Notes: generated from the sequence alone by a model not told the origin. DNA of 45,729 bases from Bacilli bacterium (GCA_036648855.1 JAVWCU010000004.1:1-45729), one strand, 5' to 3'; positions 2,346-11,340 are shown, numbered from the stretch's first letter. Program-made: numbers and translations.

Positions 2346-3581
2346 GTGAAAAAAGTATTAATTATCACTCTTATATTATGCTTAACTATTTTCCCTAGTT
2401 TATCTGTTTTAGCAGCTGATACTAACCCCGTTACTGGTATTTATCCAGATGAGATAGAGACAAATGAAGTTAATAAGGAGAAAGAGACATCTACACCAAG
2501 TGAACTGCTAACTAATGCCAAAAGTGGTTTACTAATGGAAGCTACTACGGGAGAAATCCTCTTTGAAAAGCAAATGGACGAAAGAATACCTGTTGCATCT
2601 ATGACTAAAATGATGGCTCAAATACTTATTTTAGAGAGTATAGAAAATGGTACTCTAACTTGGGATGAGAAAATAACAACATCCTCAAATGCAGCTGGAA
2701 TGGGTGGCAGTCAAATTTGGTTACAACCTAATGAAGTAATGACTGTTAGAGATTTAATGAAAGGTATCTCTATGGCCAGTGCTAATGACGCAACAGTTTT
2801 ATTAGCGGAGCGTATTAGTGGAACTGAAGCATCTTTTGTTGAAGCAATGAATAAAAAAGCTCTAGAATTAGGTCTTAAAAATACCCACTTCATGAATAGT
2901 ACTGGACTAGATGAAGAAAATCATTATTCAAGTAGTCATGATTTAGGTCTAATAGCTAAAGAACTCTTACAGCATCCTAGTATTTTAGAGTTTTCCTCTG
3001 TTTATGAAGATTATCTAAGAACTGACACTGCTAATAAGTTTTGGTTAGTAAATACCAATAAATTAATCCGCACCTATAAAGGAGCCGATGGTTTAAAAAC
3101 CGGTCATACGGATGCAGCTTTATACTGTATGAGTGTAACCGCTAAAAAAGATAACCTAAGATTGATTGCAGTTGTCTTAGGTGAAGAAAATAGTAAGGTA
3201 CGAAATAAAGAAACAGCAGCTTTACTAGACTATGGTTTTAATAATTACAAAATGCAACTTTTAAAGGCTAAGGGAGAAGTATTAGGTACTACTAAGATAG
3301 ATAAAGGAAATAAAGACCAAGTTATAATAGTGGCTAAAGATGATATTGGGATTGTCACAAAGAAAGCCGCCGAAGATGCAGTTTTAGATACTAAACTAGA
3401 ATTAAATAGTATTAAAATTCCTGTTAAACCTGGAGATGTTGTCGGTAAAGTTATTCTAACTAATAATGGAGGAGTAGTAGGAGAATATCCAGTTACAGTT
3501 AAAGAAGAAGTTACTAAAGCTAAATTTTTCAAACTTTATTTTAGAATTATAAAGGAAATGCTTACTGGAAATAGAGGGTAA
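2346..3581 (+). CDS. dacF: serine D-Ala-D-Ala carboxypeptidase (S11), DacF-like
   Basis: Signal peptide; SMTK, SAN and KTG motifs; GGSQIWL and FWLVNTNKL segments typical of DacF; upstream of the spoIIA locus; GTG start after AGGAGG. Confidence 0.85.
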   Translation: MKKVLIITLILCLTIFPSLSVLAADTNPVTGIYPDEIETNEVNKEKETSTPSELLTNAKSGLLMEATTGEILFEKQMDERIPVASMTKMMAQILILESIENGTLTWDEKITTSSNAAGMGGSQIWLQPNEVMTVRDLMKGISMASANDATVLLAERISGTEASFVEAMNKKALELGLKNTHFMNSTGLDEENHYSSSHDLGLIAKELLQHPSILEFSSVYEDYLRTDTANKFWLVNTNKLIRTYKGADGLKTGHTDAALYCMSVTAKKDNLRLIAVVLGEENSKVRNKETAALLDYGFNNYKMQLLKAKGEVLGTTKIDKGNKDQVIIVAKDDIGIVTKKAAEDAVLDTKLELNSIKIPVKPGDVVGKVILTNNGGVVGEYPVTVKEEVTKAKFFKLYFRIIKEMLTGNRG

Positions 3582-4298: not shown

Positions 4299-4337
4299 TT
4301 TTGTCGAATGAATAATTTGTAAGGTTTTGTCGAATGA
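4299..4337 (+). promoter_or_regulatory. tandem Spo0A boxes (0A boxes)
   Basis: TGTCGAA at 4302-4308 and 4328-4334, inside a 13-bp direct repeat TTTTGTCGAATGA, upstream of the spoIIA-like operon. Confidence 0.8.
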
Positions 4338-4387: not shown

Positions 4388-4726
4388 ATGCTAGAAACAG
4401 CAGAGTTTCGTAAAGGAATATTATTTTTAAGACTAACTGGAGTAATTAGAGAAATAGAGTCTAAAGAACTAAATTATTATTTTAAATATTTAGTTGAAGA
4501 AAGTGGCATTAAATATATTGCACTTAATTTATCAGGATTATCTAGTATCAATAAAGGGGGCATAGCACTATTAGATCAACTTGATAAAAAAATTAAGGGT
4601 AATGGAGGTAATCTAATTTTATGTGGAGCTAGTGATAGATTAGGAGGTAAAATCAGGAAAAATAGTTTATTCAATATTTGTAGTAGTACCAGTGAATTAA
4701 ATGTTTTTAATATGATTAATATTTAA
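4388..4726 (+). CDS. spoIIAA: STAS-domain protein, divergent SpoIIAA (anti-sigma-F antagonist)-like
   Basis: LRLTG, YIALNLSGL and IKGNGGNLILC follow the SpoIIAA pattern; syntenic before sigF; the FMDSSG motif is replaced by SINKGG. Confidence 0.7.
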   Translation: MLETAEFRKGILFLRLTGVIREIESKELNYYFKYLVEESGIKYIALNLSGLSSINKGGIALLDQLDKKIKGNGGNLILCGASDRLGGKIRKNSLFNICSSTSELNVFNMINI

Positions 4727-4737
4727 GGAGGATAACT

Positions 4738-5400
4738 ATGCCAGATACCATTGTTCAAGAGAATGAAAGATTAGTTTATTCAATTATTAGTAAATTTAGA
4801 AGATATTATGATGTAGATGATTTATATCAAGTGGGAATGTTAGGTTTATTTAAAGCTTATCAAAAGTTCGATAGTAGCTTTGACACAAAGTTTTCTACTT
4901 ATGCTCATACTTATATTTGGGGTGAAGTATTAAAGTTTGTCAGAGAAGATAAAAGTATAAAAATTAATAAGGAAACTATGAAAATAGCAAAAGTTGTAGA
5001 TAAAACCAGAGAATTTTTAACTCAAAAACTAATGAGAACACCTACTATAACAGAAATATCTTTATTTTTAGAAATAGATGAAAAAATAGTTTTAGATGCA
5101 GAGTTGTCTAAGGAATTCATCAGAAGTCTAGATTTTATTTTAAATGAAGAAAATGATGGTAAGGATCTTAATCTTTATGACCATTTAGCTGTTACTGAAA
5201 AAAAATATAATTCTAATGTTCAAGACTTATATACGGAGTTAGACAAGCTAGAAGAGAAAGACAGAAGACTTATTAAGTACCGTTACTTTGAAGATTATAC
5301 TCAAAGTGAGGCTTCTCAAGAACTAGGGATGAGTCAAGTCCAAGTGTCTAGAACGGAGGCTAAAATATTAACTAAGTTAAAAAATAAATTAATAGTTTAG
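4738..5400 (+). CDS. sigF: sporulation sigma factor SigF (N-terminally short)
   Basis: NERLVYSII, DDLYQVG, KFSTYA, RTPTITEI and YTQSEASQELGMSQVQVSR (SigF-type region 4.2); context dacF-spoIIAA-sigF-spoVA. Confidence 0.82.
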   Translation: MPDTIVQENERLVYSIISKFRRYYDVDDLYQVGMLGLFKAYQKFDSSFDTKFSTYAHTYIWGEVLKFVREDKSIKINKETMKIAKVVDKTREFLTQKLMRTPTITEISLFLEIDEKIVLDAELSKEFIRSLDFILNEENDGKDLNLYDHLAVTEKKYNSNVQDLYTELDKLEEKDRRLIKYRYFEDYTQSEASQELGMSQVQVSRTEAKILTKLKNKLIV

Positions 5401-5931: not shown

Positions 5932-6923
5932 CAGAAAAATATAATAATGTCTATATAAAGGAGACCTCTACAGTAGCAGGACCATATGAGGCAAAAGGTC
6001 CTTTAAATAAGTATTTCGATAAAACCTATAAAGATTTATATAATAATGAAAAGTGCTGGGAATTAGCAGAAGTTCATCTTCTAAAAGAAAGTATAAATAT
6101 TCTCTTAAAAAAGATTAATTTAAAAAAAGAGAGTATTGATCTAATTATAGCTGGTGATTTATTAAATCAAATTACTGCCTCTTGTTATGCAATAGAATCT
6201 TTTAACATACCCTTTCTAGGTATTTATAGTGCCTGTGCTACTAGTATTGAAGGGATGATTATAGCCTCTAAATTTATTGAAAGTAAAACCGTTTCAAATA
6301 TTATTGTATCTTCTTCATCTCATAATATGAGTAGTGAAAAACAATTTCGTAATCCAACAGAATATGGGGCCCCTAAACCAAAAACTGCTACATTTACAGC
6401 AACAGGTGGGGCAAGTATATTAATTACTAGTGAAAAAAGTAGAGTTAAGGTAGAAAGTTCTACTATTGGCACTATTTGTAATTTAGATCAACATGATGCT
6501 TCTAATATGGGAGCCACCATGGCCCCTGCTGCAGCTAAGACCATTTATGAGCATTTAACTTCTTTAAAGAGAACTCCAAGTTATTATGATTTAATTTTAA
6601 CTGGTGATTTAGGTATTTATGGTAAAAATATAGTCATTGATTTTATGAAAGCAGAGTACAATTTAGATATTCATAGTAACTATAATGACTGTGGAATTAT
6701 GCTATATGACTTAAAAAAGCAAAAAGAAATATTTGCAGGTGGAAGCGGCCCTGTTTGCAGTGCTTTAGTAAATTATAGCTATATTATGGAACAACTTAAA
6801 ACTAAAAAATTAAAAAGAGTTTTATTAGTCGCAACTGGTGCCTTATTTTCTCCTACATTTACTAATCTTAAACAACCAATCTTAAGTATTGCACATGCTA
6901 TTAGTTTGGAGGGAGTAGAATGA
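5928..6923 (+). CDS. spoVAD: stage V sporulation protein AD (DPA binding)
   Basis: AGDLLNQ, EKQFRNPTEYG, NMGATMAPAA, TGDLG and GGSG motifs; ATGA overlap with spoVAC. Confidence 0.95.
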   Translation: MTEKYNNVYIKETSTVAGPYEAKGPLNKYFDKTYKDLYNNEKCWELAEVHLLKESINILLKKINLKKESIDLIIAGDLLNQITASCYAIESFNIPFLGIYSACATSIEGMIIASKFIESKTVSNIIVSSSSHNMSSEKQFRNPTEYGAPKPKTATFTATGGASILITSEKSRVKVESSTIGTICNLDQHDASNMGATMAPAAAKTIYEHLTSLKRTPSYYDLILTGDLGIYGKNIVIDFMKAEYNLDIHSNYNDCGIMLYDLKKQKEIFAGGSGPVCSALVNYSYIMEQLKTKKLKRVLLVATGALFSPTFTNLKQPILSIAHAISLEGVE

Positions 6924-7270
6924 TATATTTATATTCTTTTCTCTTTGCAGGAACTATCTGTTTCCTTGGCCAGATTATTTTAGATAATACTAAGTTAACA
7001 CCAGGTCATATTACCAGTATCTTTGTAGTAATAGGTGCTTTCCTAGATACATTCAGTATCTATGATAAAATAATTGCCTTTGTTGGAGGCGGAGCTTTAG
7101 TCCCTATTACTAGTTTTGGGCACTTATTAATTCATGGAGCCTTATCTAAAGCTATTGATTATGGACCAGTCGGACTAGCAATGGGAATGTTTGATTTAAC
7201 AGCATCAGGAATAACCTCAGCAATAGTGTTTACTTTCTTCTTTGCCCTATTCTTTAAACCAAAAAACTAA
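6920..7270 (+). CDS. spoVAEb: stage V sporulation protein AEb
   Basis: 116-aa hydrophobic protein with TKLTPGHI and GALVPITSFG; ATGA overlap with spoVAD. Confidence 0.9.
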   Translation: MIYLYSFLFAGTICFLGQIILDNTKLTPGHITSIFVVIGAFLDTFSIYDKIIAFVGGGALVPITSFGHLLIHGALSKAIDYGPVGLAMGMFDLTASGITSAIVFTFFFALFFKPKN

Positions 7271-10184: not shown

Positions 10185-10658
10185 ATGGATAAGATTTATG
10201 ATGAATATTATTATAAACTATATTTTTGGGCAATAAAGAAAACTAATAATAAAGAAGATGCAGAAGATCTTGTTAACAATGTTTTTTTATCAATTTTTGA
10301 ATATCTAAATAAAAATGTTAAAGTTGAAAAACTAGAAAATCTGATATGGAAAGTTGCTTATAATTTATGGTGCACTAAGGCAAAAAAATATATTAAAGAA
10401 AAAAGAAATGTCATTTATGAAGATATTTATAACAAGAGCTATGAAACAGATATGATTGATAAAATTATTTATAAAGAAATAATAACTAATTTAGATAATT
10501 TTGGCTTAACAGAAAAAGAAAAAATTTCTTTTAACCTATATTATTTTAATGACCTTTCAATAAAAGAAATTAGCAAAAAGATAAATGCTAATGAAACAAA
10601 CATTAAATATTATTTATTTAATGCAAGAAAAAAAATAAAGGAGAGATATTATGAATGA
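10185..10658 (+). CDS. ECF-type sigma-70 factor
   Basis: 157 aa; EDAEDLVNNVFL and LIWKVAYN (region 2); DLSIKEISKKI...IKYYLFNARKKI (region 4); AGGAGG RBS. Confidence 0.9.
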   Translation: MDKIYDEYYYKLYFWAIKKTNNKEDAEDLVNNVFLSIFEYLNKNVKVEKLENLIWKVAYNLWCTKAKKYIKEKRNVIYEDIYNKSYETDMIDKIIYKEIITNLDNFGLTEKEKISFNLYYFNDLSIKEISKKINANETNIKYYLFNARKKIKERYYE

Positions 10659-11340
10659 TTCAAATTTAGACAAGTATTTAAATATTGCCAACAAGGTAAA
10701 AATGGAGAAAGGGTTAGATACATATATACCTTTATATCCAATGTTAAGAAAAATAGATAATAAGTTATATGTATGTGTTGTGTTAACAAATGAAAATGAT
10801 AATGTGTGGGATATAACAGGTAATGTTATTCCTGAATATTGGATGTTGATAGATGTTAATACAAATGAAGTATTAGAATTTAATAAAACAGAAGATAAAA
10901 AATTTGCTGTTAATGAAATAGAAAAGAAAAATATAGAAAATAAGCAAAAAGAAATGTCTAAATATACAGTTGAAAAAACATTACAATATAAAGATTATTT
11001 AATGGAAGATATTAAAAATCAACAATTACCATTACAAAAGAAATTATCATCAATTGTTGGTAATGAAATTGAAATTGATGGAGATACAGTTAACATTAAT
11101 GACTATTTAATAGCAAAACTTGAAGATGATATAAATGAAAAAGTAAATGAATTAGTGAATGTGCTAGTATATTCAAAATATGGTTCAATAACATTTTATT
11201 ATGACTCTTTATTTAAACAAGTAATTAATGAATATGTTAATAATAATGATATTAACCTTGATAAAATGAAATTATGTGTAGAAATTATGGATAATTATTA
11301 TGACGGTGTACTAGGAATTAAAAATTTATTTAACATATAA
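10651..11340 (+). CDS. hypothetical soluble protein, candidate ECF partner
   Basis: 8-bp overlap with the sigma gene and an AAGGAG RBS; no TM helix or ZAS motif. Confidence 0.75.
   Translation: MNDSNLDKYLNIANKVKMEKGLDTYIPLYPMLRKIDNKLYVCVVLTNENDNVWDITGNVIPEYWMLIDVNTNEVLEFNKTEDKKFAVNEIEKKNIENKQKEMSKYTVEKTLQYKDYLMEDIKNQQLPLQKKLSSIVGNEIEIDGDTVNINDYLIAKLEDDINEKVNELVNVLVYSKYGSITFYYDSLFKQVINEYVNNNDINLDKMKLCVEIMDNYYDGVLGIKNLFNI

Follow-up and report, generated by a model that had tools for sequence, protein, structure and literature searches.

A STAS-sigF operon without spoIIAB

The stretch of DNA analysed here, which we refer to as the window, comprises 45,729 nucleotides (nt) from a Bacilli bacterium (GCA_036648855.1, JAVWCU010000004.1:1-45729) and carries a locus reminiscent of the spoIIA operon, in which a gene for a STAS-domain protein is followed directly by that of the sporulation sigma factor SigF. 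What is missing between them is spoIIAB. The SpoIIAA/SpoIIAB/SpoIIE switch is the textbook route to forespore-only activation of sigma F, and its SpoIIAB/SpoIIE step is generally regarded as common to all endospore formers. Here both are gone, and this is a real gene loss that extends across the whole order, neither a relocation nor a misassembly. The features of the locus are as follows, beginning with the operon itself.

4388-4726 (+): STAS gene, 112 amino acids (aa), TAA stop at 4724-4726; PF01740 44.1 bits (cut-off 22.6)
4727-4731 (+): ribosome-binding site of sigF, GGAGG, immediately 3' of the STAS stop
4738-5400 (+): SigF-type sporulation sigma gene of 220 aa, from ATG at 4738 to a stop codon at 5398-5400; Sigma70 regions 2, 3 and 4
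4302-4308 (+): TGTCGAA heptamer (Spo0A-box-like), exact, 86 nt before the STAS start
4328-4334 (+): second TGTCGAA heptamer, exact, 60 nt ahead of the STAS start codon; this position is conserved in the clade
2346-3581 (+): dacF-like D-Ala-D-Ala carboxypeptidase gene (PBP5 type); Pfam Peptidase_S11 243 bits and PBP5_C 47.7 bits
3669-4241 (+): NT5C-like 5'-nucleotidase gene between the dacF-like gene and STAS; Pfam NT5C 35.2 bits
5485-5931 (+): spoVAC; TIGR02838 155.7 bits
5928-6923 (+): spoVAD; PRK08304 417 bits, over the cut-off of 402
6920-7270 (+): spoVAE-type gene; TIGR02839 131.3 bits, over the cut-off of 131.1

The STAS gene sits in the position orthologous to that of SpoIIAA, directly upstream of sigF and within a dacF/spoVA neighbourhood, the dacF-like gene being its conserved upstream neighbour. 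A first-pass annotation, made from the window alone, had STAS ending at 4726 and sigF beginning at 4738 with no space for spoIIAB, and had dacF upstream, spoVA downstream and 0A boxes retained; our coordinates, the Pfam and NCBIfam scans and the two heptamers agree with it on every point checked; the NT5C-like gene was not mentioned in it. As the spacer is a mere 11 nt, there is space for neither a gene nor a remnant of one between STAS and sigF. The possibility of an assembly error at this junction was also checked: the same STAS-sigF junction recurs in 17 of 23 SigF loci from relatives and in 27 of 40 metagenome loci without SpoIIAB. The junction is therefore no artefact of assembly; the loss dates far back and spans the clade.

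SpoIIAB and SpoIIE are absent from the genome, the family and the order

The genome that holds the window amounts to 1,074,078 bp in 82 contigs (95.6% complete, 29% G+C). Searched with TIGR01925 and PF13581 (HATPase_c_2), it gave matches in just two open frames (412 and 443 aa), both of which we rejected as SpoIIAB candidates as they are ordinary HisKA+HATPase_c sensor kinases. A local SpoIIAB profile, built from 44 sequences of relatives and metagenomes and run with filters off against 10,458 six-frame segments of at least 30 aa, returned the same two kinases and nothing else, at about 25 bits. For SpoIIE, neither TIGR02865 nor PF07228 gave a match in this genome at E<=10. The genome contains a single STAS gene, one SigF-type gene and one SigG; in an assembly of this completeness, no second STAS gene, no second spoIIA operon and no intact spoIIAB elsewhere was found, and the first-pass reading of loss rather than relocation thus stands. 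Of the partner-switch module SpoIIAA+SpoIIAB+SpoIIE, the STAS component alone remains.

How far does this loss extend? We compared 41 relatives, namely 25 genomes of the same family (18 genera), one of the order's second family and 15 others of the same class, together with 151 evenly drawn genomes of the order from 86 genera, all at least 90% complete and some in only 4-10 contigs. Neither SpoIIAB over the cut-off nor any PF07228 domain was found in the 25 family genomes or in the second-family genome. Across the order sample, none of the 151 genomes had a SpoIIAB match at E<=1e-15, and in none did the SpoIIE-type PP2C domain PF07228 pass its cut-off, a 19-bit match being the only trace; these profile searches of relatives, which the first-pass annotation had proposed, bear out the loss. 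As a positive control, four of the 15 other genomes of the class (G029, G030, G033 and G038) yielded SpoIIAB (152-190 bits) and a SpoIIE-length protein, with the gene order STAS-SpoIIAB-SigF. Among them, G030 has a similarly small genome, of 0.9 Mb.

Metagenomes extend this picture. A scan with the single SigF protein returned no loci, and one with an alignment of the genus returned 80, none above 54% identity. Half of them (40/80) have the arrangement STAS-SpoIIAB-SigF; the other 40 have no SpoIIAB, and all 40 encode a SigF of the clade type (profile score 216-298). In 27 of these STAS lies directly before sigF, six have no STAS over at least 500 nt upstream, and seven are too short to judge.

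The orphaned STAS protein

Judged by its sequence, the STAS protein has lost its identity as SpoIIAA. On the SpoIIAA model TIGR02886 the window's protein scores 26.5 bits and two others of the clade 45 and 52, against a cut-off of 114.75 that two canonical relatives pass with 118.3 and 125 bits. At the motif that in B. subtilis SpoIIAA contains the phosphorylated serine, all four canonical relatives have D-S-S-G, and the window's protein has N-K-G-G, with K56 at the site. Among 35 STAS proteins of the clade, this column holds serine in two, threonine in three and another residue (K/E/N/L/Y/I/M/V/Q) in 30. The fold, on the other hand, is kept: the Atlas model, a predicted structure, has a predicted template modelling score (pTM) of 0.78 and a TM score of 0.87 to STAS clusters, and the N-terminal strand and the I-D-x-x-G-I segment round the former phosphorylation site are conserved across the clade (D in 29/35, G in 24/35). 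The first-pass annotation had claimed that both remaining proteins lost their residues for interaction with SpoIIAB. For STAS this is borne out by the missing phospho-serine; for SigF, whose scores and N-terminus are like those of SpoIIAB-keeping relatives (see below), it is not.

Whilst adjacency of STAS and sigF, put forward for checking at the outset, is seen across the clade (17/23 loci, with spacers of -26 to +21 nt), it is far from universal. Six of the 23 depart from it: sigF comes after the dacF-like gene in G007 and G024, after a phosphoribosyl pyrophosphate synthetase-like gene in G001 and G005 and after a 190-aa gene in G004, and in G008 (L028, C28, locus 210-1373) it is separated from STAS by metK (S-adenosylmethionine synthetase) and has a TGTCGAA of its own 64 nt upstream. 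With the clade STAS profile, no STAS was found anywhere in the genomes G001, G002, G004, G005, G007 and G014, and within the window's genus four of seven SigF-bearing genomes have none anywhere. On the scale of the order, STAS is present in 115 of 151 genomes (E<=1e-10); amongst the 130 genomes that bear the sigma factor, comparing the genomes listed at this threshold, 112 have STAS and 18 do not.

To place these absences on a phylogeny, we used a SigF tree of 48 rows, which leaves out near-duplicate metagenome loci and those in which SigF is truncated or the upstream sequence is missing (L049, L050, L052, L053, L055, L059, L061, L062, L064, L067, L069, L071-L073, L075, L080-L082 and L085). 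The SigFs of the clade are split from the canonical ones with a support of 90, and the sister of the window is the STAS-less G007 (support 96). Nine changes of STAS presence are required, at least five of them forced by the starred branches. By this reconstruction STAS would be dispensable, having been lost at least five separate times while SigF stays.

Five STAS matches contain in-frame stops, TGA or TAA (G134, G117, G065, G069 and the second copy in G043), which suggests STAS pseudogenes in some lineages.

SigF and the retained sporulation cascade

SigF of the window is best matched by NCBIfam models for SigF/SigG (PRK05572 185.9 bits, TIGR02885 183.1 bits), both under their cut-offs, that of TIGR02885 being 321.45. 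This is shared by its relatives: on TIGR02885, two other SigFs of the clade score 182 and 193 bits, and those of the four relatives that keep SpoIIAB score 97, 152, 197 and 236 bits. As the latter also fall under the cut-off, the shortfall reflects a fast-evolving class and not this clade in particular. Relative to SpoIIAB-keeping relatives, then, SigF does not seem specially degenerate, and no sign of degeneration was found in its model scores or its length. Its short N-terminus was considered, and rejected, as a mark of lost contact with SpoIIAB, as it is common to the SpoIIAB-keeping G029 (223 aa) and G033 (207 aa). SigF is also distinct from SigG: it occupies the spoIIA-spoVA position, and a separate SigG lies on contig C25 (370 bits on the SigG model).

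The remainder of the cascade is in place. The genome encodes SigE with its N-terminal pro-sequence (315 bits), adjoined by SpoIIGA (108 bits), as well as SigK (304 bits), SigA, SpoIVA (689 bits), Spo0A (274 bits) and SpoIIR (139 bits), with SigG, SigE and SigK scoring near or above their cut-offs. Within the family, Spo0A is over its cut-off in 23 of 25 genomes (the copy of G007 is split over two contigs, and that of G014 scores 134 bits), and SpoIIR is likewise present in 23 of 25. Order-wide, a sigma factor of the SigF/G type occurs in 130 of 151 genomes (E<=1e-40). The remaining 21 genomes, mostly of 0.6-1.3 Mb, have none at this threshold and seem to have lost sporulation altogether.

We estimated the ratio of nonsynonymous to synonymous substitution rates (dN/dS, omega) by the Nei-Gojobori method for 16 locus pairs with a STAS identity of 0.5 to below 1.0, out of the 595 pairs possible among 35 clade loci. 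It ranges from 0.16 to 0.46 for STAS and from 0.07 to 0.46 for SigF. Saturation is lowest in two of the pairs. L066/L067 (dS 0.27-0.30) gives an omega of 0.36 for STAS and 0.09 for SigF; for L077/L087 the values are 0.24, at a STAS dS of 0.69, and 0.12. Both genes are under purifying selection, STAS less strongly. The first-pass annotation had raised the possibility that the sporulation genes are decaying; with dN/dS below 1 and Spo0A, SpoIIR, SigE, SigG, SigK, SpoIIGA and SpoIVA all retained, they are not.

Several further observations concern these genes and their surroundings. A search for SpoIIIAE (TIGR02829) gave no match in the window's genome and a match in only one of the 41 genomes covered (G038); G029, G030 and G033, which have a canonical spoIIA operon, are also without a detectable SpoIIIAE, and this component of the feeding tube is perhaps absent, or strongly diverged, throughout this part of the class. 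In G025, the single genome of the second family, spo0A is interrupted by an in-frame TAG and reads as two pieces (C28:9933-10674), possible explanations being pseudogenisation, a sequencing error and stop-codon recoding. Three of the 21 order genomes without the sigma factor (G060, G062 and G069) have a STAS match. Besides SigA, which lies on C31, the window's genome encodes another sigma factor that resembles RpoD (about 342 aa; C24:12298-13350, minus strand; best model RpoD with 177 bits, far under the cut-off), and within the window a 157-aa open reading frame (10185-10658, +) resembles a sigma factor of the extracytoplasmic function (ECF) type and overlaps the start of a 229-aa frame (10651-11340, +).

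Two kinds of substitute regulator were looked for and set aside. Gin/CsfB, as an inhibitor in place of SpoIIAB, gave matches at chance level only (13.5 and 12.2 bits). Amongst small open reading frames after sigF, the one of regulatory type is an XRE-type helix-turn-helix (HTH) protein in two of the 23 loci, absent from the window, and the others are unrelated. The two loci (G016, L026:1171-1428, minus strand; G010, L029:2224-2487, plus strand) share a homologous gene of 85-87 aa, HTH-like by eye, directly after sigF, which is absent from the window and the other 21 loci.

A conserved promoter box upstream of the operon

In 18 of 23 loci the operon's first gene is preceded, at a distance of 34-98 nt, by an exact TGTCGAA (once in reverse), which we read as a Spo0A box from the Bacillus consensus; four of the remaining five have a copy with one mismatch at the same place. 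All six loci without an adjacent STAS carry the exact heptamer upstream of the first gene of their operon. The heptamer occurs only 39 times on both strands of the 1,074,078-bp genome, and 0.007 are expected per 200 nt. From this pattern, the STAS-sigF promoter looks like a Spo0A-dependent one.

Upstream of spoIIR (L130-L148), in many clade genomes, we noticed by eye, and with no control count, the string G[TA]ATA, followed after some 17-19 nt by a CA-rich A/T hexamer. It presumably resembles forespore-type promoters, although we draw no claim from the likeness.

Discussion

With SpoIIAB and SpoIIE lost, SigF must be controlled otherwise, and probably more simply. The reading that we prefer, with moderate confidence, is that the switch was deleted in an ancestor, that SigF is now controlled mainly by Spo0A-driven synthesis, and that STAS is a dispensable accessory or a relic. 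In this scenario, the ancestor of the order, a group of gut Bacilli with genomes of about 1 Mb, would have shed the whole switch, with SpoIIAB as its anti-sigma kinase and SpoIIE as its phosphatase, while keeping the remainder of the cascade: Spo0A, SigF, SpoIIR, SpoIIGA with pro-SigE, SigG, SigK, SpoIVA and SpoVA. What is left of the operon is STAS-sigF, or sigF alone, behind a conserved Spo0A-box promoter. SigF would be a free sigma factor, its activity set mainly by the timing and amount of its synthesis, driven by phosphorylated Spo0A, and by competition for core RNA polymerase, rather than by sequestration and release. The orphaned SpoIIAA, deprived of its kinase and phosphatase and usually of a phosphorylatable serine, would persist as a folded STAS protein whose role is weaker and non-essential, or in part as a translationally coupled leader, and lineages continue to lose it. 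That control is mainly transcriptional and that spores continue to be formed are the parts of this scenario that we infer; the data show the gene losses and how far they reach in the clade, the degeneration and repeated loss of STAS, the purifying selection and the conservation of the promoter box.

Several points weigh against it. In B. subtilis, loss of spoIIAB leads to unrestrained and harmful sigma-F activity; if the analogy holds, purely transcriptional control would require compensating changes, and none were found among the genomes compared, although such changes, or another inhibitor, may exist. An unrelated anti-sigma factor may equally be invisible to homology searches. Members of the order are not known to form spores, and the available part of the SpoMAG report gives metagenome-assembled genomes (MAGs) of the order RF39, to which the window probably belongs, a sporulation probability of 0% (PMC12536801). 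Our selection estimates come from other species of the clade, as the window's nearest relatives share 54-63% SigF identity and their dS is saturated. STAS, moreover, is retained in 112 of 130 sigma-bearing genomes under purifying selection, which argues for a remaining role, possibly on SigF. Lastly, no RNA sequencing run with the locus was found, the search yielding a single DNA run (share 0.17), which is evidence neither way.

Could SigF instead be restrained, and given its forespore specificity, by a non-homologous and unrecognised anti-sigma factor or protease encoded elsewhere? The harm done by unrestrained sigma F in B. subtilis and the blindness of homology searches to such a factor speak for it, though only indirectly. 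Yet no candidate was found: across the 23 loci there is no new conserved operon gene, the only extra small gene being that of the HTH protein after sigF in two of them, and, since no protein of the Gin/CsfB family was found, a hidden inhibitor would have to be new. We regard this as unlikely, if the strongest of the alternatives.

A further idea, akin to one of the examples given in the first-pass annotation, is that STAS has been repurposed to bind SigF directly, as an inhibitor, chaperone or localiser, and so replaces the SpoIIAB step. Its adjacency to sigF in 17 of 23 loci, its presence in 112 of 130 sigma-bearing genomes, its dN/dS of 0.16-0.46 and its conserved fold, N-terminal strand and I-D-x-x-G-I segment would all fit. 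Against this stand the losses of STAS, at least five of them independent and one in the window's own sister lineage, with SigF kept each time, and the case of G008, where metK splits STAS from a sigF that has its own TGTCGAA promoter; direct binding of a sigma factor is also not known for any STAS domain. A complex prediction for SigF and STAS, from alignments of 35 rows each, scored 0.21 and 0.23 against a mark of 0.32 with controls not run, and is evidence neither way. An essential regulator of SigF is an unlikely identity for a protein that is lost repeatedly while SigF stays, and we consider the repurposing of STAS improbable.

Should the entire programme be seen as a decaying relic, in organisms that no longer sporulate and in which STAS-sigF is heading for loss? 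The 21 order genomes without a SigF/G-type sigma factor, the repeated loss of STAS, the five STAS matches with in-frame stops, the TAG within spo0A of G025 and the SpoMAG score of 0% (PMC12536801, in its available part) could be taken in this way. However, SigF has a dN/dS of 0.07-0.46, SpoIVA scores 689 bits, SigG, SigE and SigK are near or over their cut-offs, the family keeps Spo0A and SpoIIR whole in 23 of its 25 genomes each, the Spo0A box is retained as well, and all of this persists across 73 of 86 genera with genomes of around 1 Mb, where unused genes vanish fast. If the order is RF39, the transfer of RF39 variants to chicks alongside spore-formers, described in the available part of PMC7028958, also speaks against decay. 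The selection data in particular make a decaying pathway less likely, and we hold it to be quite improbable.

Finally, that SpoIIAB and SpoIIE are present but were missed, through gaps in an assembly of 82 contigs at 95.6% completeness or through divergence beyond the profiles in a fast-evolving class, is highly improbable, since neither turned up in any of 151 genomes, some of them assembled into as few as 4-10 contigs, the same profiles detect both in four fast-evolving relatives, the locus offers a gap of 11 nt, and the phospho-serine has gone, as expected without a kinase.

Significance and relation to known systems

This large gut clade (151 genomes sampled, 86 genera) is a natural deletion experiment, in which the rest of the sporulation cascade is kept under selection without its switch. 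From it one could learn whether endospores can be formed at all without the switch, what minimal control of sigma F looks like, and which role is left to a STAS protein that has no kinase. More tentatively, and with more doubt than conviction, we put forward that sigma F, the first of the compartment-specific sigma factors in sporulation, operates in this order with no anti-sigma factor at all, or else that cell-type specificity arises by a new mechanism (such as a non-phosphorylatable STAS acting directly on SigF, or an unrecognised inhibitor), and that in either case endospores can be made without the SpoIIAB/SpoIIE switch.

The bare absence of the genes has been partly anticipated in print. 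For the order RF39, the available part of a survey reports spoIIAB and spoIIE as reduced or absent and predicts sporulation with markedly different regulation (PMC10868615, Microb Genom 2024); that our order is RF39 is probable, given a matching gene pattern, genome size and gut origin. The survey works by presence and absence of KEGG orthologues and, in the part available, says nothing of the STAS-sigF operon, the lost phosphorylation site, the repeated loss of STAS or the promoter; nor did our literature search find a paper on the operon, the phosphorylation site or the STAS losses. The first-pass annotation had spoken of an undescribed control of SigF, and this has to be divided: the absence of spoIIAB and spoIIE is not entirely undescribed (PMC10868615, as far as its available part goes), and the mechanism is what we infer. 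Two other reports, each in its available part, bear on spore formation. RF39 sequence variants were transferred to chicks together with spore-formers (PMC7028958), and spoIIAB is among the genes common to all spore-formers predicted by SpoMAG (PMC12536801). Predictors based on gene content, which treat spoIIAB as a universal marker, will count this order among the non-spore-formers, rightly or wrongly.

How does the system compare with those already known? To the dacF-spoIIAA-spoIIAB-sigF-spoVA locus of B. subtilis the window is alike in its neighbourhood, in a STAS gene before sigF and in its Spo0A-box-like promoter sites, and the downstream SpoIIR, SpoIIGA and pro-SigE are likewise present in its genome; it differs in having neither SpoIIAB nor SpoIIE, and in a STAS protein that fails the SpoIIAA model, has no phospho-serine and appears dispensable. 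Closer to home, the SigFs of G029, G030, G033 and G038 are 31-40% identical to that of the window and similarly far from the SigF model (97-236 bits versus 183), yet these relatives have the order STAS-IIAB-SigF, the DSSG motif and a SpoIIE of 740-775 aa. RsbV-RsbW-SigB and other STAS/GHKL switches also place a STAS gene beside a group-3 sigma factor, but this type always comes with a GHKL anti-sigma kinase and usually with a PP2C phosphatase, both of which the window's system has dispensed with.

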